This document shows, one piece after another, positions 29,590 to 58,130 of a DNA stretch of 64,000 bases; positions within the stretch are counted from its first letter, which is position 1; each line of letters starts with the position of its first letter. The notes under the pieces were generated by a model. It ran no database searches. It was not told the DNA's origin and worked only from the letters and a program-made list of their open reading frames with translations. The translations under genes were made by a program, and so were the position numbers. The stretch is taken from positions 51,861,740-51,925,739 of the forward strand of contig NC_092647.1 of the NCBI RefSeq assembly GCF_039555335.1, in the 5' to 3' direction. This DNA is from Amphiura filiformis (Eukaryota).

Positions 29590-29905
29590 TCCCAGGGGGG
29601 TCACTCCCATTGTGGCCTGTACACCATCCGCGATAATCAACTTTTGAAAAGCACCCTTAACAAGGATTTAACCCTTGGCTAAAACAATACCCTAAACAGG
29701 GATTTTATTCCTTGCATCAAATTTCATACCCTAAATTTCATTTCGTATTAGCAATTGCAATTTTGCTACCCTTTTTCCAATATTTCATGTTTTTGACACC
29801 CTAAACGCGTTACTGGCGATCGTGCTTACCCACGAAAAACTACCCGTTTTACGCGTTTTCATTCGCGCCGATCGTGTACAGGCCACAATGGGAGTGACCC
29901 CCCCG
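29590..29905. repeat. Inverted repeat with about 34-bp arms separated by about 245 bp
   Basis: ccaggggggtcactcccattgtggcctgtacac pairs with gtgtacaggccacaatgggagtgacccccccggg. Confidence 0.7.
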
Positions 29906-30074
29906 GGAGTTACATGTAATACAATCGGCGAGCGTAGTACACACATCATTTGTTTGGCTCGAAATTAAAAGGGGATAAAGTGATCAGTGAAAACAAACAT
30001 TTAAATAAGAATCTATTCTTTATGCAAATCACACATTATTGCTTTAATTCTATGTTTTTCTATTGACCCCATAG

Positions 30075-30258
30075 CACAGCTAGCCTGTATTCCTCCCCAA
30101 GTGAATTGACTGGTACCAGATTGATGGTTGTTACTAAAGTTGCCCTGGGTAACATCAAGGAGATCTTTGAACATGATATGACTATCGAGACACCACCTGC
30201 AGGATATAACAGCACACATGGAGTTGCAGATGGTGATGGGGTTCAGTCACAATTCACA
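30075..30258 (+). CDS. PARP4: PARP4-like exon 12, catalytic domain
   Basis: Acceptor AG at 30073-30074, donor GTAAGT at 30259. (S)TASLYSSPSELTGTRLMVVTKVALGNIKEIFEHDMTIETPPAGYNSTHGVADGDGVQSQFT aligns to human TSIKYSHPGETDGTRLLLICDVALGKCMDLHEKDFSLTEAPPGYDSVHGVSQTASVTTDF. Confidence 0.9.
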
Positions 30259-31222
30259 GTAAGTAATTTTGTGTAAGTGAAGCTTCACCAAATGTGTTGC
30301 TAAGTTGCCTGGATTACATCAAAAGCAAGGAGATTTTTGAGCATGATTCTACTATCGATTATACAAGGGTTCATGGTCAGAGGTATATTCCAGAGGGCCC
30401 TTCCACAAATGAGGTATTTTAGTGCCCTAGGTGGAAGGAGTTCTGTGAGCATGATACTACTATTGAGGCACTTCCTGAAGGATATAACCACAGACTGTCT
30501 CTCTTTACAGTCTGTGGTGTAACATTGCATATGAAATAGCAAGAGTGGATGGTGGTATTTTATGGGGGTCCTTTACCGAATGAGGTATTTACTTGCCCTG
30601 GATAGCATGAAGGAGATGTTTCAGAATGATATGGGTATTGCTGCACCTCCGAAGGTTTTAAACAGCACACATGGTGATGGGAGAGGGGTGCATTCAGATT
30701 GAAAACAGGTGGTATGTCCAAGGGGGGTCTTTACCAAGTTAAGTTCTACACTGTCGCCTTAAAATGATTAATTATATGCATCCGCACAATAATTTACAGT
30801 TTTCAGGTGATGATCAGAGATGCCACTTTTCAGGTTGTAACCTGAATTCAGGTTTTTTGTGAGTCCAAAGTCCCACCTTTTTATTTATTTTCGGGCCCCT
30901 TTGGGGCTTTTTGGCCTGCATTTTTAGGTTTTACTCACCAATTGTTTGAGTGAAACTGCATGAGTGGCATCTTGGGATAACAGCATTTAGATAAAAATGA
31001 TCTTTTCAGTTTAAGGGCCCTGTTTTAACACACTTTTAGCATGATAAAGTGTAAATTAGTTATATTACATCAAAATCATCTTGGCATATACATTCATATA
31101 TAAAATACAGTACTATTATACAATATAAACAAAATAACATTAGAGTTGTAATAACTGTGCCCCCATTGTAACTTTGAGGTGTACTGTATAACACAGGTAC
31201 CAAACTTTTTATCGTACTATAG

Positions 31223-31382
31223 GAAGATGAGTTTGTGGTGTATTCTGCAGACCAGCAATGCATCCAGTATGTGGTAGAGTTTACATTTCCTGAGGACACA
31301 GTGGAGTCATTTCAACGTCAGGTGTCTGTTGAAGAGACGGATTCATATCATCAAAGTATTGAGAAGCCAATAAGCAAGATAG
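31223..31382 (+). CDS. PARP4: PARP4-like exon 13, end of catalytic domain with the E of the H-Y-E triad
   Basis: Acceptor AG at 31221-31222, donor AG|GTGAGT at 31383. EDEFVVYSADQQCIQYVVEFTFPEDTVESFQRQ... aligns to human EDDEFVVYKTNQVKMKYIIKFSMPGDQIKDF. Confidence 0.9.
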
Positions 31383-32554: not shown

Positions 32555-33611
32555 GTAAGTAGGCAAGATTAGGAATCCACAAATATTAAAGTTGGTGTGC
32601 CAAAACTAATTGGAATTTGTTTCATTCATCTCATCAAAGGACATGGTCAAATTGGTCATCTGAATAATATGTGTTCTAGGAGAAAACTGATTTATGGGTA
32701 TGCCTGAGTGCTATATGTGTCTCATTTCACATAATAGCTAGGAATAAATACCAGACTCATCTCAAGTGGAGGTTACTTCCAAGTCACATAGTTAAAGAAT
32801 GTTCTCTGTATTCCTTAACCATGTGACTTGGGGATAATTTGAAGCGACCTCCACTTGAGATGAGTCTGGCATTTATTCCTAGTTAGTATGTGAAATGAGG
32901 CACATGTAGCAGCTGACAAGTGCATTGTTTTGATATGGATTGTACACATATGATAGAATATCAGTACATGTGCCCTTGTCTCTCGCAGAAGAGTATAGTA
33001 GGATGTGTCTCTAGCCACAGATGCAGTGAATTCCTGTAATGTGTGCAGAGGCGTGTGGGTCTATGGCTGTGCATAACAAATTAAAATCACTGGCCTTCTT
33101 TTTGTTAAATTATTTCTCTCTTTTCTTACGTATTTTATAATGGTGGCAATTTGAACCATTTTGGTGTGACACTCTGTGTAAATTGCCAACATTGCAAGTC
33201 TGCATAAGATATGTACATTATTTTGTATCTGTACCTATCTGTACAAATCTCTGGTCATCCTATCAGAAAAAGGACTGGTCAATATAGGTCTGTGGATCAG
33301 AAGTTGCCAAAAATTGACACTAGCTATGAACTCAATCGAACAAACCACAGTCGCTAGGAAGGACTGAATCAATATGTCTTTTGATTGCTGTGACTGCAAT
33401 AGCACAGGCTCTGTGGTGAACTCTGATACCTATGATGATCCAAGATATCCTCGCTACGCTCAGTGCTCGCTTCGCTCGCTCTTCGAGAGGTGCCGCGGTT
33501 TGTGCTTGCTTCACTCGCTATCGACAGGCTATACTATGACTGCAAGTATGATATGGGCATTTCTATACTATTTCTGCCTTTATGATGTGGATTTGTTTGT
33601 TTTCTTACCAG

Positions 33612-33830
33612 GTAATAGTATTTCAATCATACAAGAATCATAGTAACACCACTATAGAAGCTAAGTATGTGTTTCCACTTGATGATGAAGCAGCGGTGTG
33701 TGGCTTTGAAGCATACATCAATGACAAACATGTCATTGGTGTCGTCAAGGAGAAAGAAGAAGCTAAGCGTGAATACAGACAAGCCATTGCAGAAGGACAT
33801 GGGGCTTACCTCATGGATGAGGAATCTCCA
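33612..33830 (+). CDS. PARP4: PARP4-like exon 15, VIT domain
   Basis: Acceptor CAG at 33609-33611, donor GTAAGT at 33831. VIVFQSYKNHSNTTIEAKYVFPLDDEAAVCGFEAYINDKHVIGVVKEKEEAKREYRQAIAEGHGAYLMDEESP is near-identical to human VIVFQTYTNKSHVPIEAKYIFPLDDKAAVCGFEAFINGKHIVGEIKEKEEAQQEYLEAVTQGHGAYLM. Confidence 0.95.
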
Positions 33831-34364
33831 GTAAGTATGATAAAAATGATTACCCTGTGAGTACTCCCTGTGAGTACTACCTGCTGATTGGTTACAAGAA
33901 CACTATTGGGATTTATTAAGCCAATCAGCTAGTGACATGGTAAGAATTGGGGTAGGACTGAAGAGGCTTAACCCCATGCGCACTACCTGCTGATTGGTTG
34001 CAAGAACACTTTTAGGATTTATTCAACCAATCAGTAACATGGGAAGAATGGTGGTGGTAGACTAAAGAGGTTTGAGCTTTACTTTTTAGAAGCTATATTG
34101 TAATTGGTCACTCAGAACTGCCCTGGGCATGCTGGGTGCAGTCCTAGTGCGGAATCAACCAATTCAGCACCCCAAATATGGTGTGTGGTTTGTGTGTATT
34201 TCAACATAAAGAGTCATTTGAAAGACCATTTTAATTGAACTTGATTATAACCAAATTAGTGGTATTAGTGCAAATTTTTGCTATTGTGTCAGGAATTTGG
34301 GGGAGCCATTTTATATCCTTGCCCCTGGGCACCTCAACCCCTTGCTAGGCTGTTATACACTCTT

Positions 34365-34505
34365 AAAACAATGTGGTCAAAATTGACCACATAGTAGTCA
34401 ACTATGCACCTTACCCTTAAATTGTGGTCAAAATTTAACCACAATAATGGTCAAAATTTGACTACAATTTAGGGGTAAGGTGCATAGGAACATGTTGTTT
34501 TAAGT
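34365..34505. mobile_element. Small foldback/MITE about 115 bp upstream of exon 16
   Basis: cttaaaacaatgtggtc...gcaccttacccttaaattgtgg pairs with ctacaatttaggggtaaggtgcataggaacatgttgttttaag. Confidence 0.6.
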
Positions 34506-34620
34506 GTGTACATGAGATGAAGTTGGGTCATCCTCCTGTATGCTATATAAAAGGGTAAATTGAATCTCTTATGGAATGCTTTGTTTGCTTATTTTACATT
34601 TTTTCTTCATTTTTCCGCAG

Positions 34621-34832
34621 AATGTGTTCTCAGTGAGTGTTGGAAATCTACCGCCAAATGCCAACGTACTCATCAAAATCACATATGTCACAGAATTGGC
34701 TGTAGAGGGTGGCAGGCTAGCGTTCACTCTTTTAGGAAGTGTTGCACCATGGAAACGGAAGCAAATCCAAGCTAAAGATAATGCAGATAGTGATGCAGCA
34801 GGTGTCCATGTTGATGCCAGCACACACACAAG
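34621..34832 (+). CDS. PARP4: PARP4-like exon 16, VIT domain
   Basis: Acceptor CAG at 34618-34620, donor GTACAT at 34833. NVFSVSVGNLPPNANVLIKITYVTELAVEGGRLAFTLLGSVAPWKRKQ... aligns to human DVFTVSVGNLPPKAKVLIKITYITELSILG...ATVAPWQQ. Confidence 0.95.
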
Positions 34833-35254
34833 GTACATTATTGAAAACATTTTATATGCAATAAACACAATGCTCTATCTGCTGCCTTGTGGTCTTTAAC
34901 ATGGACTGCTAAAAACATGAAGACTTCATGTGCAAAACATGATAGGCTATAATGGCTATTCCAGTTTAAATCCATACAACCCCTGTGGAAGACAATGACT
35001 TTAATCTTCCACACTAGGAGTGTGAATTTCTAATCGGGTTACCTAAACATGCTAAATTGGGCGACTACATTTGAAATTTACACCCCCTGTGTGGGAGATT
35101 AAGGTCATGTCTTCTTTATCAATATTGTTATTGATAGATTAACAGTTATTTGCTCAGATTAGTATTACAAAATTATACTGCATAAAAGCAAAATGAATAA
35201 AACAACATCAGACCACATTCATGAACATTTCAATGTTGTATGGATTACTTCCAG

Positions 35255-35336
35255 GGAGGAATCTCTTCAGGTCTCATTACACATGGCCAGTGATATCCGC
35301 AGTGTTGAATCACCCACTCATTGTATCAAAACAAAG
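35255..35336 (+). CDS. PARP4: PARP4-like exon 17
   Basis: Acceptor CAG at 35252-35254, donor GTACGG at 35337. (R)EESLQVSLHMASDIRSVESPTHCIKTK aligns to human KQSFSLTMSIEMPYVIEFIFSDTHELKQK. Confidence 0.8.
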
Positions 35337-35732
35337 GTACGGTTAATCACATAAACTTAATATATTTTTTTTATTAAAACTGTCTCGAATGAGAGCTAGA
35401 CTTATCCCCCCCCAGTTTACCCCATCAAAATGCAGATTTATTTCTCATACCATCACTCAGTGATTTATCCCACTACCCTTTTCATGAGAATGGCATATTT
35501 TACCCCTAAATGTGTCACAAATTAGTAACATGCCTGATCATAAAACCTTTTACACATTTTTTAGTTATTATGTATATATCACCCCTCTCGATCCTGCCCA
35601 ATACCTCGATTTCCACTTGTTTTTGTCTTTATTCACTTGAAAAAAGTATATGATGTAGATATATCCTTATCTCTGTGTTTTGTTTTGTTACCCATTTTAA
35701 CATTATTCTCCATTCTAATTATATGATTTTAG

Positions 35733-35867
35733 TATCAAAACAGCCAAGGTTGTGTGAAGCTATCAGGGGGTGCAGGACTTGGTGACAGTTTCCAACTTTT
35801 CATTGGATTAGCAGAGATTCATTCACCAAGACTATGGCTTGAAACTAATCCAGAACGGAATCAACAG
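35733..35867 (+). CDS. PARP4: PARP4-like exon 18
   Basis: Acceptor AG at 35731-35732, donor GTGAGT at 35868. YQNSQGCVKLSGGAGLGDSFQLFIGLAEIHSPRLWLETNPERNQQ aligns to human TDCKAVISTMEGSSLDSSGFSLHIGLSAAYLPRMWVEKHPEKESE. Confidence 0.85.
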
Positions 35868-36639
35868 GTGAGTGTGCCTTATTATTGGTTAGGTTTTACT
35901 CAAGTTGACCCTTGACATAAAATCATGATGTTTATATTTTTATTGGAGGTGGGCAAAGTGAATTTCAAGGGGGAGCAAAATAAACAAATTTTGCACAAAA
36001 TTGATGCAGAAATTTTTGTAATTTTGGTGTTTTTTTAAGGTGTATCTGGTTTTTAAAAAAAATTTTGGCAACTAAAATATAAACCCAGTCTAACTAATAG
36101 ATTGGTATAGCTTTGGCGATAGTAAAGAAATCACTTATGAAAACAAAATTGTTTATCACGAGCCCACAACAAAATATTTTTCAATTGGAGAAATACAACA
36201 ATTTGTTTACAAGCACAATTACTGTAACCTTGAATATGATGCAGTAGCTAGTCCAAATAAGGACTGGCCTAAATACGGACTGCCCTAATTTAGACATACC
36301 ACCCGGGCATACCACACATAATATTTAAAAAAAATCAAATTCAATGTGCCAAGTTTTTATTGTTATCATCATAGAGGAATGCATGTTTCACACATTAAAT
36401 ATGCAATTCCAAGTATTTTGTTTATTTATACACTGTTCTTACTGTTTTTTATCATCAGAGTAAACACTTTTCTACCATGTATCTATCTATTATTTTGCTC
36501 TCTTTTCTGTTGAAAGATAATGAAAAGCGATGTAAAAAAGTGGGCTCATCATCGAGATGATGATGGATAAAAAGAATAATCCCATATTACACAATTTGGT
36601 ACTTTTTTCTATTCATTATAAGGTAAAGGTAAAGGTAAA

Positions 36640-36905
36640 AGATGCGAACCTGTATATAAACAGTGAACGGAGTGCCCATCTCTCTTTCATTGGCGATTGG
36701 GCCAGACTCCTCCATGTAATTTTGTTGTAGGGGGGTCGCTACACCTCCTCCACAGCGAGTCTGTTACCTTCCCAGCATTAAAGAATGCCGGTACCCATTT
36801 ATATACACCTGGGTGGAGAGGAGTAATCGAGATAAAGTACCTTACTCAAGGGCACAACACGATGGCGTCGCCGGGACTCGAACCCGCAGTAATGGTTGCT
36901 TGTAA
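36640..36905 (-). mobile_element. tRNA-derived SINE, related family, just upstream of exon 19
   Basis: The reverse complement begins with a tRNA-like GCGGGTTCGAGTCCCGGCGACGCCA. Then ccacccaggtgtatataaatggg, shared with the 11478 and 28433 copies. (GTAAAG)n-like tail at 36626-36650. Confidence 0.55.
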
Positions 36906-36941
36906 CATGAGTGCTACTTTTATTATTTTATATCATTTCAG

Positions 36942-37128
36942 GCAGTCATGCTGGTATTCTACCCAGATTTTGTCACCCATGTTATCAATGATCCCGAGAT
37001 CATCCTCATGGTGGATCTGTCCAATTCTATGCAAGGAAACAACCTACAAGAAGCTAAGACACTCTCACAGCTCATACTCAGACAACTACCTGCTGCATGC
37101 ACATTCAATGTGATCATCTTTGGCACAG
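36942..37128 (+). CDS. PARP4: PARP4-like exon 19, start of vWA domain with a DxSxS metal-binding motif
   Basis: Acceptor CAG at 36939-36941, donor GTTAGA at 37129. AVMLVFYPDFVTHVINDPEIILMVDLSNSMQGNNLQEAKTLSQLILRQLPAACTFNVIIFGT aligns to human ACMLVFQPDLDVDLPDLASESEVIICLDCSSSMEGVTFLQAKQIALHALSLVGEKQKVNIIQFGT. Confidence 0.9.
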
Positions 37129-37314
37129 GTTAGATTGAGTGGTTGATTAATTGATTGAGTCAGTGAGTGAGTGAGTTTGTGATTGATTGGGGAATGAGTC
37201 AGTCGGTGCATGGGGTGGGTAGGTGTGTGTGTGTTGGGGGATGAGAGAGAGAGAGTAAGCTTATGAGTAATACAGCAATAAAAACTACAATTATTATTTC
37301 TCTTCTACTTTTAG

Positions 37315-37579
37315 AATATGAAGAACTTTTCCCATCTAGCCAAACCAAATCAAAGCCAACCTTAGACAAAGCCTTGAGATTCATCCAGGAAGCTGAAGCC
37401 AACCGAGGCAGCACAGAGGCCTGGAATCCTATGCATGCATACTTCCTACTCAAACAAGGCAATACTAAGCCTTGTAATATCTTCTTGGTTAGTGATGGTC
37501 ATGTGTCTAATGAGACAGCTACACTGATGGCTATTAGTCAGAATAGGGAGACATCAAGAATCTTTACATTTGGGATGAG
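37315..37579 (+). CDS. PARP4: PARP4-like exon 20, vWA domain
   Basis: Acceptor AG at 37313-37314, donor GTAAGA at 37580. (E)YEELFPSSQ...NIFLVSDGHVSNETATLMAISQNRETSRIFTFGM aligns to human YKELFSYPK...NILLVSDGHLQDESLTLQLVKRSRPHTRLFACGI. Confidence 0.9.
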
Positions 37580-38274
37580 GTAAGATAAGGCAAAAAAATA
37601 AACCACTTTTGGAGCAAACTTGCTGCTCAGTGCTGGTGACAAGAATTTTCACAGCACATGTGTCAAAGTTCACTTTTCAAACTCTGAAATGTAGTTAGGG
37701 TAACAAAAACTACTGGTTAAGAAAGTCTACTAGATGACCTCAAAAGGTCATCTGTGAAAATAGAAATGGGGACAAATTGTCATGAATTTGGCCCTTATAT
37801 TTAATAGCCAATGTTGACATGGGGTCATCATCGTAATATTTTGGACTAACACCTCGGCTAAATAGTACTTTAGAATATGACAGTAATGACATCATGAATG
37901 TGAACACCAAGCCAAAATATGTCAAAATCACTGGGCCTATGCCGTGATGGGTCTAGATATATATGTGAGATGTGTATGCTTTTGATATATGGGTTGTTCG
38001 GTCTATAAAAGGATGTTTTCTTTTCTTTTTGTACCCAAATGTTACCAGCATGCCAACATTCATCTCAAATACACAATTCAAAGTTGAGGTCTGTTGCAAA
38101 ATGAAGGGATTTGACTCTGCAGTTACATTCTAATTGGTATGAGCTTCATGATTTTAAGACACAGAAATAACTTTTTGGGGCTTATTCATGTATTTTAATC
38201 TTTCCATATAATGTTCTTTCATTCTCATGACAAATTATGAAATTGAAATTTATACATTGCATTAACACATACAG

Positions 38275-38374
38275 CTCTACAGCTGATCACCACACCTTGC
38301 GTTCAATGAGTCGTCTGGGCGGTGGCGATTTTGAATTTTTTGATGTCAAAGCCAAGTCGACATGGGAAAAGAAG
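38275..38374 (+). CDS. PARP4: PARP4-like exon 21, end of vWA domain
   Basis: Acceptor CAG at 38272-38274, donor GTAAGT at 38375. (S)STADHHTLRSMSRLGGGDFEFFDVKAKSTWEKK aligns to human GSTANRHVLRILSQCGAGVFEYFNAKSKHSWRKQ. Confidence 0.9.
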
Positions 38375-39243
38375 GTAAGTGACTTGGGCTCTTAAGCTGA
38401 ATTTATACTCAATCGCTTTTGCAGAAAAGCGATTTTCACGCATGCTCAATGTTTACTTACATTTCCAGAGCGTCAAGCCGATCAATCGATTCAAATCGCG
38501 GAGGCAAAAACAGCGTCGCTTTTGCAAGTTGAAGAAATCTCAACTTCCCAGCGATATCGCTTGACACGTGAATGCGTCAACCAATCATATACAACCAACT
38601 GGATCTATTATTTTACTAATTAATTTATCTTTCTCGATTTTTAACTTTTGATGATGAATTAATTCAAAGCAATAATTATTGACAGCAACTGATGTTTTAA
38701 AATGTATTTTGTGGCATTTAGAATATTTTAATTGTCGTCTGCAATCGCTATCGCTGCGTGATAAGTATAAATGCAAAAGCGACGGGCGATGCATCGCAAA
38801 ATTGGCGATTGCAAATCGCTTTTTCAAAAGCGATTAATCGCATCGCTCGGCGATCGAGTATAAATTCAGCTTTACTGTCACCACCACACAAATATAAATA
38901 CTGGATTTTTCAGTTTAATATAGAAATACCAACCTTTTTAGACATACCTTTTCAAAAAGTAGTTGTAAATGGGTTTTTTTTTCATAAAGTTAAAGATGTG
39001 CTCTACCATGTCTACTGGCCATTATTTTATGATATCTACACCACCAGAGCAATTTCACTCAAAATTTGATTATAGACCTCAAAACAAAAATGTTTTCATG
39101 ACCTTTATATAAATGTTGAGATTAAAAATATATTTTTTAGGTTTTCTATTTCCTGGAAGTCATTCCCAATAATATAATACTCTGAAGAAATCGCACAGAA
39201 CAAAGTGTCGCACCAAAATGGTTCAAATTGCCACCAACTTTAC

Positions 39244-39947
39244 CCAGCAAACACAAAAACGTTTTAAAAACGTTTTAAATAAGTTATATTTTGGCTTTTG
39301 GTTTAGGTAAAAACGTTTTAATAACATTAAAATGTCGGGTTATATAAAGGTCATGATAACGTTTTAAAAGCGTTTTGTATGAAAACACACTACAACAATA
39401 TTTTTAAATGTTTTCAAACAATGTTATTGTAAACTATTTTTGCAAACTTTTTTGCCAAATATTGTGTCAATACTTAAATAACATTATGTTAAAATATTTG
39501 AACCCAGCAAACACACAAATGTTCTTAAAATGGTTTTTTCAAAACCTTTTAATAACATTTAAATGTCGGGTTATATAAAGGTCATGAAAACGTTTTTAAA
39601 ACGTTATTGAAAATATTTTGGGCAAACATTTTTCGCAAAATATTTTTTCAACCCCAAAGTAACATTCTCTTTAGAATGTTTTGTATCAAGTTTTCAAGAA
39701 TGTTTTTGGAATGTTATTAAAACGTTTTTATACCCTTTATATAACCCGATATTTAAACGTTTTCTGTAAAACATTTTTGTTTGCTGAGCAGTAGATTATC
39801 AAAAAATATTTTTTAAGGTTGTGAAAACGTTTTATACTCTTAATATACCCTTTATATAACCCGACATTTAAACGTTTTCTGACAACCTTTTATAACCTTT
39901 TGCGAATGATGTCGAAAACGTTTTGTGTTTGCTGGGTATACCATTGT
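39244..39947 (+). mobile_element. Composite MITE, family 'CCCAGCAAACAC', copy 3, in a PARP4 intron
   Basis: Full-length match to copies 1 and 2, same orientation and terminal inverted repeats. Confidence 0.8.
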
Positions 39948-40119
39948 TAGGCGTATGTAAGAAAAGGCAGAGGTAATTTTTGTGGAATATAATTTTCATC
40001 CAATTTCCAAACTTTAAATGATAGAGGCACAGTAAAGAGACAACAGCTTTTTAACAATACTTCTGTAAAATAAGGGGGGGGAGCTAATTTGATTTGACTT
40101 TTTGTTTGCCTAATATGAC

Positions 40120-40420
40120 TACCTCTTAAACACGCCCAAGTACTACAAAATACTGCTTGATATATGTGCTGTTCGTGCATGCATCCCACATGGTGTGATG
40201 ACGTAATCGCCCTAAGTGATATATAGGCATGGTTAGCTGGCCAGCGAAGCCCAAGACCCGTGGCAAAGTGTTGCCAACCATCTGCTTGGCATGCGAGGGG
40301 TCTCGGGTTCGAATCCCACCCAGAGCAAACAACTTCTCTCTTTATTCCTTCCTTCTTTCCCTTCCCGTCGCCAAAAAGCCCCTGGCGGGTTAGGGTTAAC
40401 GTCACTGTAACATTGCTTTT
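40120..40420 (+). mobile_element. SINE-like repeat, family 2, with a B-box GGTTCGAATCC. It ends 18 bp before the exon 22 acceptor.
   Basis: About 90% identical to 43760-44045. Contains tggccagcgaagcccaagacccgtggcaa...gcgaggggtctcgggttcgaatcccacccagagca plus a CT-rich tail. Confidence 0.75.
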
Positions 40421-40437
40421 GATGCATTTTATTGAAG

Positions 40438-40617
40438 CTGAAACATCAAATCAGTCGATGTTGTCAACCAGCTGTGAGTAACATTGGCATAGAATGGGGA
40501 AATGAAGACAAACCCTCATCTGAAGACAGGGATCCATTGCAAGCTCCAGCACAGATCACTACGGTATTCAGTGGCTCCCGTCTTGTGGTCTATGCACTTG
40601 TCAACTCATGTTCACAG
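40438..40617 (+). CDS. PARP4: PARP4-like exon 22
   Basis: Acceptor AG at 40436-40437, donor GTGAGT at 40618. LKHQISRCCQPAVSNIGIEWGNEDKPSSEDRDPLQAPAQITTVFSGSRLVVYALVNSCSQ aligns to human IEDQMTRLCSPSCHSVSVKWQQLNPDVPEALQAPAQVPSLFLNDRLLVYGFIPHCTQ. Confidence 0.9.
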
Positions 40618-41415
40618 GTGAGTATCTGGTAGTGTGTTAGGTGAGAGTAAGGGGATAGAAGAGTGTCTCTTACCAGGCAGGTGGCCAGTGGTCCATCCAT
40701 CATGTAAGCAGTCTCAAAATTGGCCTATTCGCCGATCGTGCGTGTTACGGGATCTGATACCCCTGGGTACGTAATAATAAATCACGCCCTCATTGGGTTC
40801 GGGGAGTCTCCATCATGGCAGAATAGCAAATAAACCATGTCATCTTTACCTCCTGATTTATTGTAGTTTTATGAAGCGTTACATCACGCAACAGTGCGGT
40901 CATCTCAAAACTAGATTCTACCTGCAAAATGCTTGTTGTGTGTGCCTACGCTTGTCAAACGTGTGCTTTAATTGCTGCAAATGCTTTGCAAAAGCCTTCT
41001 GACACGTTGCTAATGAGGGCGAAAAACAAAAATGCACTTTTTGCGCATGTGTTTGCAAGGAAAACTTTGTTTTGATAGCAAGATGGCAGATCTGTGCAAA
41101 GGTTGAATTGTCAAGACTTCATTGAGGGTTCAGCCTGCTTTATTGCGCCACTAAGGAGGAAAGTGGGGCATTTACCCCCCCCCCCATATTTTTCTTGCCC
41201 CCTGCACAATAAAAACCCCAAATTACAAAAATTCCTGGCACTGTATGCTTACATGAAGGTAATACCTGGCCTGGGTTGCATTTCTAGTCAGTGTGTGAAA
41301 TTGAAATCAGTTTTCTAAACATTTGTCAGTTTTTACTTTTAAAAATTGACATTGAATACCTACCTAAATGAAAGCTGAGTGTTCTACTGATACTTCTGTC
41401 AATATTTTCTTCCAG

Positions 41416-41511
41416 GTTGTTTTGAAAGCTGATGTTCCTACTGTGCCATATGGCAGCAAGGAGGTCATCACCAAATTTGCAGCTGAAGATATCAAGAACT
41501 CACAAGGAATG
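41416..41511 (+). CDS. PARP4: PARP4-like exon 23. Its downstream intron appears to be GC-AG.
   Basis: Acceptor CAG at 41413-41415. Encodes VVLKADVPTVPYGSKEVITKFAAEDIKNSQGM, compare human ATLCALIQEKEFRTMVSTTELQKTTGTM. The only in-phase junction to exon 24 (ILHQLAARAI, human MIHKLAARAL) uses ATG|GCAAGT at 41512. No GT donor gives phase 0. Confidence 0.7.
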
Positions 41512-42194
41512 GCAAGTCATTTTATTTTGTTCTGTTCGAAAAGCCATTTGAACGTTTATTTGATCAGCATGTCGTTGTGTATCTACACATGCTGCACAAG
41601 AACATACAATGTGGAATGATTGCTTGCTACAATAACAGTCGTCTTAGGGCATTTAAATAAAGGCACTTAATTTAATGCCCATGTGACCAGATGGGCACTG
41701 ACATTACAGCTAGACAGGAAGGCTGGAAAAGTGACCTTTGGCACAGCGAGCGGTCTTCATGTGTATTTCAATTGGAAACACGGCATGAATGTCCAAATTT
41801 TCTAGAAAATTTGTCATGTTTTTTGCACCTTTGTAGTATTATTTCAAGAGTTTCTGTCAATAACCTTTTTTTTTTTCTGTCTTTAAAAACTTCCAAAATT
41901 TAGTTCTTCAAAACATACTAAAAAAGTAGTATCTCCCAATGTGTAATGAATTACCTTATACAATTTTGAGTAATTTCGATGATATTTTGTCTGAAAAGTT
42001 CCTATCTCTTAGCATTGTAGCACATCTACTGATCACTTGATGGTCTTGGTATGGCAGCGCCCATGGGTCATGTGGGCATTAAATTATGGGCCTTTATTTA
42101 AATACCCTATTATGACTGAAGAGGTAACTGGAAATCATTTTGGGAAAGAAGGACCCAAAATGTTACATTAAACTAAGCAAAACAAAATGGTGAT

Positions 42195-42500
42195 TTGATC
42201 CTGGATGACCCCAAAATGACATTGACATTTGTTGTGTCACTTCGGTGGTCGTTCCCACCAAATTTTTGAACCTACGACAATCTATGGCGATTTTACCCCG
42301 AATGACTCTAAATTGGCCTTGACATTTTGTCTCGTTTCGGAACCTGCGACAATATATGGCGATATGACCCTGAATGGACCTTGACATTTTTTGTCTTGTT
42401 TGGTGGCCGCTCCCACTAAATTTCATGAACCTGCGACAATCTATGGTGATTTGACCATGGATGACACTGAATGATCCAAAATTGGCCTTGACATTGGTGT
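42195..42500. repeat. Tandem repeat of about 85 bp, about 3.5 units
   Basis: gaccYtgaMtgaccttgacatttt.gtctcgtttcggWRcctgcgacaatctatggcgatttgacc repeats. Explains the minus ORF at 42163-42426. Confidence 0.85.
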
Positions 42501-42923
42501 CTCATTTCGGTGCTCCTTCTTTTAGTTACACCCACCCACGCCACTGTTCTTTTAGTTACACCAGCCAAGCATATTAATTATGTTGGTTACTTAGAGATAA
42601 TATTGAGAGACTGGCCATGGCAACCTATGGGGAGTAAGAGGGAAGACCCCATTTGCAACAAATGCAAACTTGCTCTGGCTTGGACCAAGTCCACCTATCC
42701 ACCAAGTTTGAGGGCCATGATGCGACCTGTCTGTTCCGAGAATAAGGGTGGACAGACAGACACACACCCCGACACACAGCTAGACGCCAAGACGGACAGA
42801 CTACCAGTATTATTATATAGATATAAGAAAGAAAGAATAAAAGTAATTGTGGAAGGTGTATGATAAAGTAAAATTTGTTGTTGTTTTTTTGTTTGTTTGT
42901 TTTGTTATTTGACAAATGTACAG

Positions 42924-43106
42924 ATACTCCATCAACTTGCAGCAAGAGCCATTGTACAAGACTGGGAAGAGGGCGCTCTTCATTCCGATCGCTTACATCA
43001 TGAAGCCAAGAAGATGGAGATTCAGTCCTCCATTGTTCCTCTTAGCATGGAGTACAACATCATTACTCCTTACACCAGCTTTATTGCAGTCGAAGAAAGA
43101 CGAGAG
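42924..43106 (+). CDS. PARP4: PARP4-like exon 24
   Basis: Acceptor CAG at 42921-42923, donor GTAGGC at 43107. ILHQLAARAIVQDWEEGALHSDRLHHEAKKMEIQSSIVPLSMEYNIITPYTSFIAVEERRE aligns to human IHKLAARALIRDYEDGILHENETSHEMKKQTLKSLIIKLSKENSLITQFTSFVAVEKRDE. Confidence 0.9.
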
Positions 43107-45339: not shown

Positions 45340-47700
45340 AGCTGACTAATTAAAGTGAGCCTTCCTAGAGAGTTCTTTGAGGTCAATGTTGTCAAGTTGA
45401 GATCTGAAATACTTCAGGTTTTCTGTTGTCTTCACGTCAGCGGGTAAGAGGTTCCATTCCGGAATGGTGTATGGGTAGAGTGCATGTTTATAACAGTCTT
45501 TGTTGACATTGATTCTCTTGAGATTATTTGGGTGATTGTTTCTGGTTGATCTGCCAATTTGGTCTTTAGGTGTGAACTTGCGGTTGGTAATATTTGATGG
45601 TGCCAATGAGTTGAATTCTTTGAAGATGATGGTGAGACGAGCTTTTTGGCGTCTTGTAGCCAGGTTTTCCCATTTTAGTTCATGGAGGAGATGAGTAACA
45701 CTGGTTTCACGCTTGTAGGCATTACAGACAAAGCGTGCCGCTCTGCGCTGTACCTTTTCAACTGTTTCAATGTGGGTGTGTTTGGGGGTCCCAAATACTG
45801 CTGCAGTACTCAAGTTTGGGACGAACTAATGTCTTATAGGCAGTGGCTTTGGTCTTTTCGTCAGCAGCATCTCAGGTTTCTCTTCAGAAGGCCAAGGATC
45901 TTATTTGCCCGGCAGTAACTTGATTGATGTGCTTGGACCAAGAAAGATCTTTTGACAATTCCACTCCTAAGTAAGGATGGTGATCAGTTTCTTGTAAGAT
46001 GGAATTTCCCATTTTGTATTGTTGGATGACTGGTTTCTTCTTGTGTGACATATGCATGGTGAAGCATTTTGAAGTATTGAAGCTCATTTGCCAAGTTTGT
46101 TCCCAGTTGCACAATGAATCAATATCTTTTGTAAAATGTCACAATCACTTTGGGATGAAACTTGCGATAGAGTATGCAATCATCCGCAAATAAGCGTACT
46201 TGAGAGTTTACAGAGTCTGGGAGGTCGTTAATGTACATGAGGAACAATAACGGGCCTAATACTGTTCCTTGGGGAACTCCAGAAGTAACGGGGGAATTGG
46301 CAGACTTTTCACCATCTATGATGACTGTCTGCTGACGTTGTGTGAGGAAACTATCAATCCAGTCTTTAATGTTATTTCTGATGCCGATATGATGTAACTT
46401 AGCGAGTAAGCGTTTGTGAGGGACCATGTCGAACGCTTTGCTGAAATCCATTATGATGAGATCAACTTGACTTCTTCTATCAAGAATTTGCGCAAGGTCT
46501 TCAGTCAACGCTGCCAGCTGAGTCTCGCATGATCTTTCTTTGCGGAAACCGTGTTGGAGGTCAGTAAGCAGATGGTACTTGTCGACATGGTCCATAATAT
46601 GACGATGAATAATGTGTTCTAACAATTTGCAGGATATACAGGTCAACGAGACTGGCCTGTAATTTGAAGGACAGGACCTGTCTCCCTTCTTATAAATGGG
46701 GGACACGTTTGCGTTGAGCCAATCCGTTGGTAACATACCGCAGTCGATAGACTTTTGAAAAATCTTCTGAAGTATCGGAGCAATAGATACTGCGCACTCC
46801 TTCAAAACTCTCGCGGGTATATTATCTGGTCCTGAAGCTTTGTTTGTCTTGAGGTTCAGGAGAAGTTTCTCAACTCCAGGCGTAGTAATATTTACAGGGG
46901 GCAAATCAGGAACTGAGCCATTGCTCATATCAGGAATACTTGACAGATCTTCCTTTGTAAAGACGGAACAGAATTGTTTATTTAATGCATCAGCTTTGTC
47001 CTTGGCACTAGAGATGGTACGCCCAGCGACCTCTAGGCCAGAGATACCAAACACCTCTTGTTTCTTAGTCTTTATAAAATTCCAGAATGGCTTTGTGTTC
47101 TCGGATTGAAGGCTAGCACCTATCACCTCCCTGACATAAGACTTATACTGCTTTCTGATCTTGCGGTCAGTACGACGCCTAATTCGCTTAAACTTTTCCC
47201 AAAGAGCTTTGCTACTTCTTTTACGAGCTTTGTTATAAAGTCGTTGTTTCTTACGAATTTCTCTCTTGGTTCCATCTGTGATCCAAGGCTGACTTAGTCT
47301 AGATGAACTCAGTTTGGAAGGAATATGCTGGTTTATGGCTGATTGCAGAGAATCTTTAAAGGATATCCACAGAGAATCAATGTCTAATTCTGCTACTAAC
47401 TCATCTGAGAGCTGGTCATTGAAAGCTTCCATCTCTTTAATGATTTCAGCATAATCGCCCTTGTTAAAGAGAAAAATCTTTCTCCTTGGGCGCTTGACAA
47501 ATTTGGGCTTAATACTTGCGTCGATGACAACGACATCATGGTCACTAATACCAGCTTGCACACTAACTTTGTTCACAAAAGATGGGCAATTTGTAAAACA
47601 GAGGTCCAAGATGCTGTTGTTCCTAGTTGGTTTGTCAACAATTTGCGCAAGATGCAAATGTAGTGAGCAGAAAATTTTGCAATTTTAAACATTTCTGGTT
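45340..47700 (-). mobile_element. Degenerate, 5'-truncated LINE ORF2 (end of endonuclease, reverse transcriptase, C-terminal region) in intron 25, nested inside another repeat
   Basis: Minus ORF 46119-47657 has GISDHDVV (end of endonuclease) and reverse-transcriptase motifs up to SGVPQGTVLGPLLF...FADD. ORFs 45884-46114 and 45346-45813 continue the reverse transcriptase and C-terminal region in other frames, so it is frameshifted. Flanking sequences 45100-45340 and 47690-47850 are related direct repeats (gccaaaaRttgc...cctgccaaaattg.t.cccc). Confidence 0.8.
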
Positions 47701-48017: not shown

Positions 48018-48167
48018 GTGAACCCAGAGAAGCAGATAGCCAATCTTTTGCGTACAGCTAATACAGCTACTGAGACTCTGTCATTTGATGCAGCAGAGAG
48101 GTATTATGAGGATGCACACAAAGTGGCAGAGGAGAAACTCAAACCAGACAGCTCACTTGTACTAGAG
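48018..48167 (+). CDS. PARP4: PARP4-like exon 26, poorly conserved linker region
   Basis: Acceptor AG at 48016-48017, donor GTAAGT at 48168. Phase 0 to phase 0. A 50-codon ORF, VNPEKQIANLLRTANTATETLSFDAAERYYEDAHKVAEEKLKPDSSLVLE. Phase-compatible with flanking exons but lacks clear homology. Confidence 0.55.
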
Positions 48168-48649
48168 GTAAGTCACATATTTGAGCAGGATTTTAAAAAA
48201 AATTCTCATGACCATATTTGGAATAAGCATGAAAAATGTATTAAAATAAGTACAAACAAGCCTAGAAATGGTGTAGTTGTTCTTAAGATAGCTCTTGATA
48301 TTTTGAGGAAACATCTCAAAAATGTTTGTGTTTGAAGACTATGACTGGCATGCAGAGCATTAAAGTTTGGAAGAGTGGACAGGCTTTACCATTTACAGGG
48401 TGGCCCGAAAATGAGAGAGGAAGACTAAATATTAATTCTGCATAATGGTATGTCAAAATATATTACAGCAGGATTTTCTTTGTTTCAAAATGAGAATTGC
48501 TTTGAAAAACAAAAGGCATTCCTGTAAATGAATAACAAAATGAATAACAAAATAAAGTTTTGTGTACATGGCAAAATTCATTAAAAGTTATGGTTTACAA
48601 TTTACTTCACTTTTCCATTTTCAACATTTTGTGTGACTTTTGATCGCAG

Positions 48650-48773
48650 GTAGCTGACAAGCTATCCAAGTTTTACTTCCGGGTCAGACGCAGTGCCAAG
48701 AAAGCATTTTCTGTCATTGATAAGGTCTATAAAAAGCAACAAGAAACTCCCAGACCAGTACCGTCACAGCAAG
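48650..48773 (+). CDS. PARP4: PARP4-like exon 27
   Basis: Acceptor CAG at 48647-48649, donor AG|GTAAGT at 48774. Only open frame from the acceptor. Encodes VADKLSKFYFRVRRSAKKAFSVIDKVYKKQQETPRPVPSQQ. Phase consistent. Confidence 0.55.
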
Positions 48774-49107: not shown

Positions 49108-49171
49108 TGTACAAATCAGAGGAGCTAGAGCACTTGGATCAATTGGAAAAGGCAGCTGAGTGGGCTCAACT
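49108..49171 (+). CDS. PARP4: PARP4-like exon 28
   Basis: Acceptor AG at 49106-49107, donor GTAAGT at 49172. Encodes (V)YKSEELEHLDQLEKAAEWAQ(L). Phase 1 in, phase 2 out, consistent with neighbours. Confidence 0.55.
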
Positions 49172-50135: not shown

Positions 50136-50233
50136 GTGTAAATCTCTTGAAGAAAGCTTTCAACCCATTGACATTGGACCGCCTGTAAGAGATGAATCAA
50201 CAACTCCTTATGAAGAAGAAATACATGAAGAAG
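50136..50233 (+). CDS. PARP4: PARP4-like exon 29. Its downstream intron appears to be GC-AG.
   Basis: Acceptor CAG at 50133-50135. Encodes (L)CKSLEESFQPIDIGPPVRDESTTPYEEEIHEE(G). Only the GAAG|GCAAGT donor at 50234 leaves the phase-1 overhang needed by the strong acceptor at 50615-50617 of exon 30. The alternative GT donor at 50238 breaks phase. Confidence 0.55.
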
Positions 50234-50617
50234 GCAAGTATTTGGTTTAGCACACCCCAAAATCACGTCTCCCATTTTTTGGGTTTTTGTTGAAAAAGGG
50301 GTCCATTCATAGATGGCTCCAAGAAATCTGGGTTATTATGTGTAAATACTAAATATTGGGTGTCATTGACCATGAAAAATAACTTTTGGGCATAAATGTG
50401 CAAAAATTTGCCATTTTGGAGCTAAAATTGCTACAGAAATGTTACTTTTGTTCAAAATGGGCTCGAATTGTGCAACAAATGTGCAGATTTGGTGAGTTCT
50501 AAAAAATGGGGGTCATTGGGTGTGAACTGATGAAAAAAGGGGGTCATTGGGCAGTAGAGAAACCCTGGATCCACGTATTCAAAATATTTTATACCAAGTT
50601 ATATTTCTTTGATACAG

Positions 50618-52272
50618 GTGATGAAAGTGCAGAGGTCTTACTACCTGTCCTTGAGCTTGAATATGATAACCAACCACTTGACAGGATAGTGGATTTGCCA
50701 CCAATGAGACTGAGTGCACAAATGCGTGCAGATAGCATTGCAGAAGAGCGCATAGAGGTCTTGAAAGAAGATATGTTAGAAGGAGATGACCTTGAATATG
50801 ACACAGTCGAGCTTGTTCCCATCATGCCTTGTTTAGGTTCAGCGCGTGCAGAGAGCCCTGAAACAGTGGAAGAAATTCATTATGCAGATTATGAAGAAGA
50901 TGTTAAGCCGGTTACTGTGATTGCAAAAAGTGCACGTGCAGAGTCTCCAAAAATGAGGAAGAGATATGAAGGAGATAGCGATGAGGATACCTATGCTTAT
51001 GGAGATTTACCACCGAGCTTGCCGTTTTTGTCAAGACAGATGACTATGGGATCTGAAGATGATTATGAGGAGCTGGCTGGATCAGTACCACCATCCACTA
51101 TTGAAAGAGACATAGGGGGCATCGCAGGTGGTAGTGGTGATAGTTTTGATGATTATGAAGCACTACCAATAGGCCCAAAATCCTCTGCTGAAAGAAGTAT
51201 CGGTGGTATCGCAGGAGGGGGTGATGATGATGGATTCATCCCCTATGAGGACTTACCCCCAAGCTCGCCAGTATTGATGAGACAAAGTACAATGGAATCT
51301 GAGGATGATTATGAGTGGGTGGCAGGTGTATCACCACCACCACCCTCTGCTAAAGAAAGGATGGGTGGCATTGCAGGTGGTTCCTATGATGATTATGAAG
51401 CACTACCAATAGGCCTACCAAAGGCAGCAGGACTACCACCTCCTGCACCTGCGGCACCCCCGCCAGTTGCACTTGGTGCTGCAGCACCCCCACCAGTACC
51501 TGGTGCAGCACCACCACTCCCCTCACCACCTGCACCTGTTGCACGAGCACCCCAGCAATCACCAGGTGCAGTACCACCACCCCCACCACCTGCACCTGAT
51601 GCAGCAGTACCACCACCACCACCACCACCACCATCATCTCGTAGAGCACCACCTGCACCTGGTGGACCACCATTTCACAAAATGGCAAACATGCCGTCAT
51701 TACCTGCATCTGAAAAATCAAAACCCACCCTCCTGAGTGAAATAAGACAAGGTGCTGCACTTAAGTCAGTTGAATTGAAAATTCCTTCTAAACAAGCTGT
51801 GGCGGAATTACCATTGAATAGCATATTACTACGCCATCAATTTTCTGTTGATGCAGATGAAGATGATTATGAAGATGATGAATGGGATGATGATTGGAGA
51901 GAAGTGCCTGAAAAAGAAAGATCAGAGAGAGAATCAGATGAAAAACAGATCAGTGATGATGCTATTGAAAACGCTGAAGAACGAACTCGCTCTCTTGATG
52001 ATCTGCTACAAAAATCAGAAGAACTGTCAAAGAAGGGTAGTGTGGCATTTTCCAGCAAAGCCAAGTTGAAAAAGAAACGTGTAGCCCTGGGAATTCGTTT
52101 TCCTGCTCATGATGGGAAGCATGAGAAAGAAGAAAAGAAGAAGAAAGCTGTAAAAGAGAAGATGAAAGTAGCAGAGCCAGTGGAACCACTGACAGATATA
52201 CCAAGTGCTAGGAGGAGTAAGCCACAACTGAATGCATCAAACATTGAGAAGCTACTGAAACTGAGAGAACAG
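50618..52272 (+). CDS. PARP4: PARP4-like exon 30, a giant exon with acidic tandem repeats, a polyproline tract and a WH2-like motif
   Basis: Acceptor CAG at 50615-50617 with a long pyrimidine tract. Uninterrupted 551-codon frame (part of the 605-aa ORF 50506..52323). Donor CAG|GTGAGT at 52273. Strong codon and composition structure. Phase matches exon 31, which has clear PARP4 C-terminal homology. Confidence 0.7.
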
Positions 52273-53236
52273 GTGAGTAGGAGACCTTGTACGGGTACAC
52301 GCTCAGAAAAAAGTGCAACTTAGAACCTTTTTTGTCTCGTATACAGCACCTTAAGTAATGATTATGTGATACAAAGAACTATTTTCTTGAATAAAGAACT
52401 TTTTTGATTCTACAAAGAACCCCGTGGAAAACCAATGGATTTCCAAAAAAAGTACTTTAGCCAAGAAAATAGTTCTTTGTAAAACCTTAAGCTTCAAGAA
52501 CCTTTAAGAAACCATTCAGAAAGAATCCTCAAAAAGGGTTCTAAGTTTAACAGAAAATAGGTTCTTTAGCCAAGAAAATTATTTTTAGAACCAAAAAGGG
52601 TTAATGCTTCTTATTTTCACTTTTTTACTTTGTTATGGGTCCCTGAATTATTGAATTAGAAAGTTTCTATGCTTATATAAATCTTCAATGTTCTTTAAAG
52701 AACTTTCCAAAGTTATTTATAGATCTTAAACATTAATTGCTTAGGGTACTGTATAGTTGCACCTTTATTCTAAGAGTGTCTATGTGTCGGGGGGGCACTC
52801 ACATGTGAAGGTGGTACAGGTATGTGCGGCGGTCAAGGGTCCCTTTTTCAGGCTCTAGCAGTTCCTTAAGACCCACATTTGGATATGCTCTAGTTCTTTG
52901 AGCCTCAAACTCGGACAATTGTTGTAGCTCTTTAAGCTCAAATTTGGAACAATTTGGAAATTTTTTAGCTCCACAGCCTATAATTTGACCCTAATTTCAG
53001 TTCATCAAGCCCCTATTTTCCCCGAAAATCAGTTCTTTGTTGCCAACATTTGGTGCTCTGCGCCGCACACCACTACCAAAATTCAAGTTGAGCCCCCACC
53101 CGAGATTATGCATACATTTTGCCATATCTCATGAAATGTTATGCAAGTTATCAGAAACTGTTACAGGTAGCCAACAAAAATTACTGTAATTATAGGTTAA
53201 TGAGCGCATTACATTTGTTGGGAGAGAAATTAGACA

Positions 53237-53644: not shown

Positions 53645-53741
53645 GGTTACAAATGGCGCTTTTCAAAAGATTTTGACAAGATCTTAGGCATCAACAGCCA
53701 GATTTGTACTGCTACTATCCAGGATACTAAGCTTGCATGGG
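53645..53741 (+). CDS. PARP4: PARP4-like exon 31, start of the major-vault-protein-interaction-like C-terminal region
   Basis: Acceptor CAG at 53642-53644, donor G|GTAAGT at 53742. GYKWRFSKDFDKILGINSQICTATIQDTKLAW aligns to human DGFWKLTPELGLILNLNTNGLHSFLKQKGI. Confidence 0.75.
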
Positions 53742-56071: not shown

Positions 56072-56329
56072 AGGCGTCACAAGGACAACTTGATGATATC
56101 CACATACTTATTGCTGTGATGCTAGCTGTGTTGCATCTGAGAACGTTCTTGGCTTCACAACCTAAGAAGAAATCTAAGAAACAAACAACACTCTGTGAGC
56201 ATGTACAGAAAGCAATCGATGCAGCAATGGAAATGCTTGAGCATTTTATGCAAGATCTTGATTTGAGAAATATGCCAGAAAAATCTGGTTTGGGTGTGGA
56301 TTGGTGGGAGATAGGAAACAAGCTATTTG
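56072..56329 (+). CDS. PARP4: PARP4-like exon 32, C-terminal region. The terminal exon and stop codon were not located.
   Basis: Acceptor CAG at 56069-56071, donor G|GTAATG at 56330. ...QLDDIHILIAVMLAVLHLRTFLASQ...CEHVQKAIDAAMEML...KSGLGVDWWEIGNKLF aligns to human LLDLIATMLVLQFIRTRLEKEG...IPWAFEAIKQASEWV...PRLELGNDWDSATKQLLG. Ends in phase 1, so at least one more coding exon follows. Confidence 0.8.
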
Positions 56330-58130
56330 GTAATGTAATATAAGCGTGGTCAATTTTGGAAATAAGGGCCAAAAACATTTTAGAGCTTTTTTCATATGAT
56401 GTGACAATCAAGCTGAAAGACTTGTACAAAGACTAATTTCAAGTTATGCATTCTAATTTTTGGCAAACATATTTTCTAATCTTTTTCATAATCAATTATC
56501 GAAAATTTCATTTAATAGTAAAATTATGAGCTCGTAGCTTATACTCAATATTTTGATGCTTAGACTTGTGCCAAGTCTAAGAATTATGTGACTACAATTG
56601 TAAGAAAATAAACAAAATTGTATTTGGTCTTGAAATATTGCAATTAAAATATATCTTTAAGAAAAAAACCAATTCTAGTAGAAACATTCTTTACATTTAA
56701 AACGCTATACCGATATGGGCGATTTTTCAATGGAAAAGATGAGACCTAAGATACAGTGATAAGATTTAAGTGCATTACGTTTTACTACCTGAAGAAAATT
56801 TATCAAAAATTGAATTCTCTCCTGAGGTTAGTATCTGTCAATGAATTGACCAGATCACCAGGCTGTCATTATAGCTAGAGGCATTATATGACACACATGG
56901 GTCAATGTGTTACATTAAAATGACCTTGTGTGGTATTTAGCTCCCAGGAAGTTAGTTTCGCCTGAGGCAATTACCGTCGATTTGGTTGAAAAAGGAGGTG
57001 AGACATGGTCAATTCTGTTCAGGCAGTGAAACCTAATGGCAAATGCAGGCACAAAAACAGGTAAAGTTCGATGGCCAAATTGCCAATTCCAGAGCCCACA
57101 GAAGGGCAGGAAAACAAAAGTACACTGGAAGTGATGAAAATCACTGTGGACATAGCAGACAAATAAAACCAAACAGACAATTTTCTGTTTTTATCTTTCC
57201 CCCACCCCCCGGTTCAGTTTTAGAAAAGATTAGGTATTCATCCCTCGTGCTTTTGGTACAAACAATACTTGCGTTGAAAGGATGCTGCTTGGCAGTGGCA
57301 TGCGCAAAGGGGGGGGGGGCAGGGGGGCACCGCACCTTACACACCTAAATCAGACTCCATTAGGGTGAACTGAACAACCTGGCCCCCCACTTTCAATGTG
57401 CTGTGCACGCCACTGCTGCTTGGCGAAAGCGATCCTATTCTGATATTCAAAACTGTGCTTTGTAGAGCGCCATATAATGCTTAATTGTGATAAATAAATA
57501 CATAAATGAATAAAATCACAGATATTGATCCAATATCTGTGATAGAATGAAATGAAAAAAATATGTCTTTGCCTAATGTTGTGTGGGTGTGTGAAGAGGG
57601 TGGCAGGTGTGAGTGGTGATGGGGTGTGATTGGTGATGGGGTGTGTGGGGTTCAAGCTGTTGGTGTTTGAGTGGTGCGGGGGTGAGTAGGAGTTTGTGTA
57701 TTTTTTAAACAAGTGGGAATATTCTATAAAATGTTAATGGTAGTGCGGAAAGTGCATAGGCTTAGATCAGGGGGATGGTGATAAATCCCCCCTCCCCATA
57801 TTTTGCTAGGGGATGGGTCCATACAATCATCCCCCAATGTTGATGCCAGTATGTGGGTAACCACATATTTGACCATTTTGGCCCCACTTTTGCACCATAT
57901 TTCACCAGTTTAGCTTCAGTAAATGGCAACATTTTCCGTGCACATTTGTACCTTTACCTTTATATAATCTGTGGCCAAAAGGTTCTGGATTCATTATACT
58001 TCAATATATTTTTTCCAATCCCATCCCTCCCAATGTAAAAAAGTAATCTACTCCACTGGTAAAATGAAAAAATTACCTCTTGAGATGTAGGCCTAGTAGT
58101 CTTGAAGTACCATTGTGAATTTGCACGTGT

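Follow-up and report, generated by a model that had tools for sequence, protein, structure and literature searches.

A putative WASP-type proline-rich, WH2, connector and acidic module encoded by a large exon of an ophiuroid PARP4 gene

Proteins that switch on actin branching by Arp2/3 share a signature, the VCA region, which combines a WH2 motif (V), a connector helix (C) and an acidic segment (A). In the WASP family, this region sits at the C-terminus of the protein. A proline-rich part docks profilin-actin and SH3 domains, the WH2 motif binds an actin monomer, and the C and A elements bind Arp2/3. Here we analyzed a stretch of 64,000 nucleotides from Amphiura filiformis (contig NC_092647.1 of assembly GCF_039555335.1, positions 51,861,740 to 51,925,739 of the forward strand), referred to below as the window, which has 37.5% G+C and carries on its + strand a gene for PARP4, an ADP-ribosyltransferase that associates with vaults. 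A large exon of this gene, exon E (50618-52272, + strand), is rather likely to encode a class-I nucleation-promoting module, composed of a proline-rich tract, a WH2 motif, a connector and an acidic segment in canonical order, within the linker of the PARP4 protein. The VCA is a known module. Its occurrence inside a PARP4 is new and makes a new domain architecture.

The other closely related system is human PARP4 (VPARP). It has a disordered, positively selected linker between the ITIH-like region (ITIHL) and the MVPID/MINT (PMC10450202). The A. filiformis gene resembles it in having a linker that is likewise disordered and fast-evolving and that lies between VIT/VWA and a helical domain of about 150 amino acids at the C-terminus (PMC10450202; AlphaFold2 (AF2) models). 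Exon E occupies the same position and is therefore the positional counterpart of the human linker, with different content. The full-length human PARP4 chain is present in the set of PDB sequences that we searched and was matched by neither the exon nor its profiles, so that the module is absent from the human protein at the sequence level. A literature search found no WH2 or VCA described in human PARP4, nor any paper tying PARP4 to WH2 or VCA. The original prediction on this DNA, made by a model from the sequence alone, had stated that the exon has no counterpart in human PARP4; this holds for the sequence, but a disordered linker does exist in the same position (PMC10450202).

An exhaustive HMMER search of 1.84 billion representatives detected exactly two relatives of the exon, P0121 (E 2.3e-17) and P0122 (E 7.6e-4). 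Both are open frames on short contigs (L001/L002, 3.3 kb, GCA_013332995.1; L003, 15.6 kb, ERZ25070167). Three-way alignments of the window exon with P0121 and P0122 were used for the comparisons and profiles below, the profile A4 being restricted to the VCA region and the profile A2 being longer.

The WH2 (V) motif, SEKSKPTLLSEIRQGAALKSVE, was found at 51709-51774 (+ strand), a few bases off the 51714-51776 given originally. With PTLLSEIRQGAALKSV, it fits the pattern of a short amphipathic helix followed by LKKV-type residues, and 11 of the 18 residues of the WH2 core are identical to those of the first WH2 of N-WASP. The S, L, I, G and LK residues are invariant in the three species. The sequence directly after the WH2 motif is IPSKQAVAELPLNSILLRHQFSV, followed by DADEDDYEDDEWDDDW. 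The connector-like amphipathic helix (51796-51849, + strand; AVAELPLNSILLRHQFSV) contains LNSILLRHQF with a conserved Arg. It aligns with GALMEVMQKR of N-WASP and VATILSRRIAV of WAVE1, and the pattern L...R..[FI]SVD is conserved. The acidic segment with its Trp (51850-51897, + strand; DADEDDYEDDEWDDDW) aligns with the acidic tail of N-WASP, and its D, W and D are invariant in the three species.

With a single 84-aa segment as the query, the PDB yielded four N-WASP constructs and nothing else up to E 10; the WASL acidic tail was among them. The profile A4 was searched against 177,635 PDB sequences. Its top 12 matches were all WH2 or VCA proteins: N-WASP (E 1.5e-12, 5.2e-8 and 9.9e-8), Spire (3.6e-6, with single-WH2 Spire constructs at 0.23 and 0.27), WAVE1 (1.2e-3 to 1.7e-3), a WASL-CA chimera (0.018), VopL (0.032) and WAVE2 (0.24). 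The alignments to full-length N-WASP and WAVE1 cover the WH2 motif and the connector and extend into the acidic region; the longer profile A2 agrees. The spacing is similar as well. There are 15 aa from LKxV to the C helix, compared with 17 in WAVE1 and 19 in N-WASP, and the Arg and the Trp are about 19 aa apart, compared with 20 in WAVE1 (the reference distances were read off the alignments). AF2 with the three-sequence alignment gave an essentially unfolded chain (predicted TM-score 0.20) with short helices exactly on LLSEIR in the WH2 motif and on NSILLR in the C element.

The order of proline-rich tract, WH2 motif, connector with Arg and acidic segment with Trp is that of the WASP family (N-WASP/WASL, WASP, WAVE1-3). 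The differences from this family are that the module lies in the middle of PARP4 rather than at the C-terminus, that it has a single WH2 motif, and that the host lacks WH1/EVH1, GBD, SHD, WAHD1 or a similar regulatory domain. The domains encoded upstream are PARP catalytic, VIT and VWA, and the gene is therefore not a member of the WASP family. The WH2 motif of exon E also matches the WH2 repeats of Spire and of VopL/VopF, but the exon has a single WH2 motif, after which come C and A elements that are absent from those proteins.

The WH2 reading of the original prediction is thus borne out by the N-WASP matches, the ortholog profile and the invariant motif residues. The proposed actin-monomer module of polyproline plus WH2 was also supported, but it was understated, since the C and A elements had been overlooked. 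A WH2 motif followed by C and A elements amounts to a full WASP-type VCA, which points to Arp2/3 and not to actin monomers alone.

Conservation in the exon is concentrated in islands. In the three species these are SEDDYE, the proline tract, the S..L..I..G..LK residues of the WH2 motif, IPS, the C element ending in [FI]SVD, the acidic D..W..D, and the exon tail IP.AR.K..L..S.IEK.L.L. The invariant residues are the functionally critical ones of a VCA, namely L, I, G and LK of the WH2 motif, SVD past the C helix and the acidic W.

The proline-rich tract (51430-51672, + strand) has 81 aa with 48% Pro and 78% P+A+G, its longest runs being P8 and P6. It ends 12 residues ahead of the WH2 segment and is found in both orthologs. 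In P0122, the tract has five runs of six or seven prolines, mostly as G[AV]PPPPPP. A polyproline of 75 residues had been predicted; the tract is present, but it is proline-rich rather than pure polyproline. Its xPPPPPP motifs are of the kind that would bind profilin and SH3 domains.

The N-terminal half of exon E, with 23% D+E, contains two classes of repeats ahead of the proline-rich tract. Short ARAESP-type repeats (50719-50952, + strand) include QMRADSIA, SARAESPE and SARAESPK. With a strict pattern, there are 2 copies in the window, 7 in P0121 and 5 in P0122. The ARAESP(V/E)M repeats look like S-P phosphorylation sites, and their copy number differs strongly among the species. Acidic units of the form DLPPS...SEDDYE...ER.IGGIAGG...DDYEALPIG follow at 50998-51414 (+ strand; direct repeat families D3, D4 and D6). 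Unit 1 (50998-51174, 59 aa) and unit 2 (51244-51414, 57 aa) are separated by a partial copy of 23 aa (51175-51243), so that the predicted number of about three copies was slightly generous: the repeats are real, with two full copies and one partial copy. The DNA of the units is 72-88% identical with a spacing of 240-246 nt, and the ER.IGGIAGG sub-unit occurs three times. Duplication of the DDYE unit, which carries YE[EAD]L-type motifs, is confined to the window species; the orthologs have a single copy, and the SEDDYE core is invariant. Neither class of repeats had relatives among the PDB sequences, and the acidic repeats had no Pfam family match.

Exon E has 1655 nt (551 codons plus 2 nt). 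It is entered in phase 1, left in phase 0, and needs 1 nt from exon D. Its acceptor is ...gatacag/GT (50616-17) and its donor is CAG/gtgagt (52273-74), the slash marking the exon boundary. The exon is spanned by an open frame of 606 codons from 50503 to 52320. The chance of such a frame is about 1e-16 to 1e-19, as calculated from the local or the window stop-codon frequency. As the original prediction supposed, the exon is open and lies inside PARP4, with exons for the PARP catalytic (29018-31306), and VIT/VWA (33600-43106) domains upstream on the same strand and with phases that fit its neighbors.

These neighbors, all on the + strand, form a chain. Exon A (48018-48167; tag/GTG and GAG/gtaagt) ends in phase 0 and is the last exon matched by P0020, a PARP4-like protein of A. 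filiformis (80% identity to residues 229-284 by tblastn). Exon B (48650-48773; AG/GT sites) is in frame with exon A, ends in phase 1 and resembles the C-terminus of a PARP4-like protein of Acropora. Exon C (49108-49171; tag/TG...CT/gtaagtat) ends in phase 2; it is 81% identical to L003 323-370, and its donor is common to both. Exon D (50136-50233) has a GC donor, AAG/gcaagt (50234), and ends in phase 1, which fits the need of exon E. Downstream, exon F (53645-53741) is entered in phase 0 and left in phase 1 and has a tblastx match to L003 6557-6667, and the terminal exon (56072-56343), which encodes the C-terminal helical domain and carries the TAA stop, is 52% identical to L003 7282-7539. Exons A through F and the terminal exon together give an in-frame coding sequence of 2460 nt that closes at the stop codon. 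With its 1655 nt, exon E could not be skipped on its own without putting the C-terminal domain out of frame.

The same arrangement is seen in the orthologs. All three orthologous exons open with ag/GTGAT and end one codon ahead of a gt donor at the homologous position. The check on conservation thus came out in favor of the exon, which is present with identical boundaries in two other assemblies. L003 also has homologs of exons C, D and F and of the terminal exon, which are collinear and in the same phases. Its exon D homolog (2407-2451) ends in CAG/gcaagt (about 2468), so that the GC donor is common to the window and L003. Retention of a rare GC-AG intron at only about 40-50% protein identity is good evidence of real, used splice sites, and it suggests that exon E and the C-terminal domain are translated as parts of one protein. 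Judged from its splice sites and phases, which are compatible with those of its neighbors in both the window and L003, exon E is probably a constitutive coding exon of ophiuroid PARP4 that encodes most of the disordered linker.

The identity of the gene was examined with a composite of candidate exons, which retrieved PARP4 and VIT-VWA proteins. The closest were two PARP4-like fragments of A. filiformis, P0003 and P0020, which match successive exons between 34.6 and 48.2 kb. Exons that align cleanly are 77-97% identical to them, and the value is 50-61% where an alignment overruns an exon boundary. The PARP catalytic exons (29-31 kb) and the VIT/VWA exons (33.6-43.1 kb) are matched by more distantly related PARP4 proteins. 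The PARP4 proteins that match the upstream exons carry PF00644, PF08487 and PF00092. In the public annotation of A. filiformis, the PARP4 locus is split into several short "PARP4-like" models. P0020 overruns into the intron past exon A, ending in ...EVSEGYEKGCGT, and the large exon may therefore be unannotated in this species. The C-terminal 200 aa and the three-species alignment had no relatives in a word-indexed protein database. The PARP4 matches in that database were all shorter than 900 aa, so that long PARP4 models may be missing from it and absence there carries little weight. A scan of JGI metagenomes with the alignment also found no relatives.

The analysis shows the sequence anatomy, the in-frame gene structure, the conservation in three species and the similarity of the V-C-A profile to N-WASP and WAVE1, whereas transcription of the exon, binding of partners, activation of Arp2/3 and any connection with the vault are inferences. 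The most likely mechanism would be as follows. The proline-rich tract would dock profilin-actin and SH3 domains, and the WH2 motif would hold one actin monomer in its barbed-end cleft. The connector helix with its conserved Arg and the acidic stretch with its conserved Trp would bind Arp2/3. PARP4 would thereby recruit G-actin together with Arp2/3 and promote nucleation of branched actin wherever the protein is concentrated.

Several observations weigh against such a module. The Pfam WH2 model gave 12-15 bits (E 0.13, 0.016 and 0.017), under its gathering score of 23.1, and it did not detect P0122. WH2 was still the first or second among the few Pfam matches listed for the window segments and P0121. 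The profile check proposed with the original prediction was thus split, the ortholog profile matching WH2 proteins but the Pfam model staying below its cutoff, and it is the ortholog profile and the three-element architecture, not Pfam, that carry the family assignment. In P0122, the C helix is shortened and the acidic stretch is weak. The VCA is internal: about 125 residues of exon E and then about 120 aa from exon F and the terminal exon, about 250 residues in total past the acidic Trp, follow in frame. The comparison is built on three sequences. Resemblance to a VCA can arise by convergence of short linear motifs where disordered sequence is acidic or rich in proline. Finally, if the C-terminal domain docked the protein within the vault lumen, as it does in human (PMC12280208), Arp2/3 would be kept away from the VCA.

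Some of these observations would suit a simpler module resembling verprolin or WIP, in which the proline-rich tract and the WH2 motif bind profilin and actin monomers and sequester or deliver them without Arp2/3, the acidic stretch being a general acidic linker. The WH2 part supplies most of the profile score, the exon is acid-rich throughout, as the composition of its N-terminal half illustrates, and the C helix of P0122 is degenerate. We nevertheless consider this unlikely, because the alignments to N-WASP and WAVE1 reach through C and A, because the Trp and its flanking acidic residues are invariant in three species that are about 40% identical overall, and because a helix is predicted on the C element and the order and spacing fit a VCA. 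An explanation by chance or convergence goes further and takes the conserved islands as linear motifs for phospho-regulation, packaging or docking of partners, with no actin function. It could draw on the sub-threshold Pfam score, on the fast evolution of the equivalent human linker (PMC10450202), and on the weak R-SNARE-like matches of the linker described below, which indicate that helical and charged segments attract motif-level matches. It would have to account for a list of top 12 PDB matches made up entirely of WH2/VCA proteins, with E down to 1e-12, for three independent elements in the right order behind a proline-rich tract, and for conserved residues that are exactly those critical to the motifs. 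For these reasons we hold it to be slightly more doubtful again.

A further possibility is that the PARP4 locus harbors a separate, nested gene or an alternative transcript and that the exon is part of this unit; it might, for instance, be a piece of a WASP-like gene that stays apart from the catalytic part in the mature protein. The splitting of the locus into short models in the A. filiformis annotation, and the end of P0020 after exon A, would be expected in this case. Exon E, however, lacks a start context and a stop of its own, takes 1 nt from exon D and gives phase 0 to exon F; L003 has retained both these phases and the GC donor of exon D, and skipping exon E alone would cause a frameshift. 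We therefore rejected a nested gene on the conservation of phases and splice sites, and give it very little credence.

Exon E ends in a conserved tail, EPVEPLTDIPSARRSKPQLNASNIEKLLKLREQ (52174-52272, + strand), which is the most conserved block in the three species and was modeled by AF2 as a helix with a predicted local distance difference test (pLDDT) score of about 90. The C-terminal helical domain, of about 150 aa, probably begins with this tail and continues through exon F and the terminal exon. This domain resembles human MINT weakly, with an hhalign E of 0.2 and, by Smith-Waterman, a z of 2.8 for the window but no signal for L003. The Smith-Waterman alignment was collinear and paired GYKWRF with GFWKL and LIAVML..RTFL with LIATML..RTRL. 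HMMER searches of the PDB with one and with two sequences of the domain gave no PARP4 match. The AF2 model of the domain was too poor (pLDDT 54.6) for a fold search, and Foldseek returned no meaningful match.

To our knowledge, neither vaults nor PARP4 have an established function in the cell. In human, the C-terminal domain of PARP4 docks the protein inside the vault lumen, and conservation of the MVP residues in contact with PARP4 is reported for vertebrates only (PMC12280208). The label of vault component, which the original prediction had applied to this protein, is an assumption for an echinoderm PARP4. Vaults have been repeatedly seen at actin-rich sites, such as lamellipodia, the tips of actin filaments and neurite tips, with no molecular link known (PMC2169495, PMC2150576). 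As a speculation, this PARP4 might unite an ADP-ribosyltransferase with a nucleation-promoting factor of a new kind. In one version, many copies clustered on or in the vault would make an Arp2/3-activating particle that is propelled by or anchored to actin. We consider this proposal improbable as it stands.

The module in this PARP4 ortholog makes a hypothesis that can be tested at the bench. If it is true, an ADP-ribosyltransferase, and possibly the vault, would be joined to actin assembly by Arp2/3, and the small group of factors that carry a VCA would gain an unrelated host protein. It would then also be seen how functional linear motifs can arise in the disordered, fast-evolving PARP4 linker. 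If the module is inactive, the exon would provide a clean case of motif-level convergence or of exon shuffling in a disordered region.

Between the acidic segment and the exon tail lies a charged helical linker (51898-52173, + strand), which AF2 predicts as a long helix. Within it, 51979-52080 (EERTRSLDDLLQKSEELSKKGSVAFSSKAKLKKKR) resembles the C-terminal half of an R-SNARE motif plus the polybasic juxtamembrane stretch, with no transmembrane segment after it. The three-species profile A5 matched VAMP4 (E 0.0045) and VAMP2/3 (0.06-0.2) in the PDB, and VAMPs made up 11 of the 20 top matches. The region aligns with ERGERLDELQDKSESLSDNATAFSNRSKQ of VAMP4, with the polybasic stretch next to it, and the likeness extends to VAMP2. 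It differs from R-SNAREs in having only half of the motif, no transmembrane anchor and weak E values from 0.0045 to 0.2; the Pfam Synaptobrevin model was sub-threshold in the window and in P0121. The resemblance is a lead rather than a finding.

Exons A and B (48018-48773) gave sub-threshold Pfam matches to 14-3-3 (E 2.8e-5, 24 bits versus a cutoff of 33) and to TPR repeats, which suggests that a segment of helical repeats may join the ITIH-like region to the disordered linker. The introns of PARP4 hold long open frames for reverse transcriptases at 24099-25745 (+ strand) and 46122-47684 (- strand), with PF00078 at E 4e-22 and 2e-29; these are insertions of LINE-type retroelements. At the far 5′ end of the window, a long simple-sequence array (205-600) reads as (FIYL)n in all three + frames.

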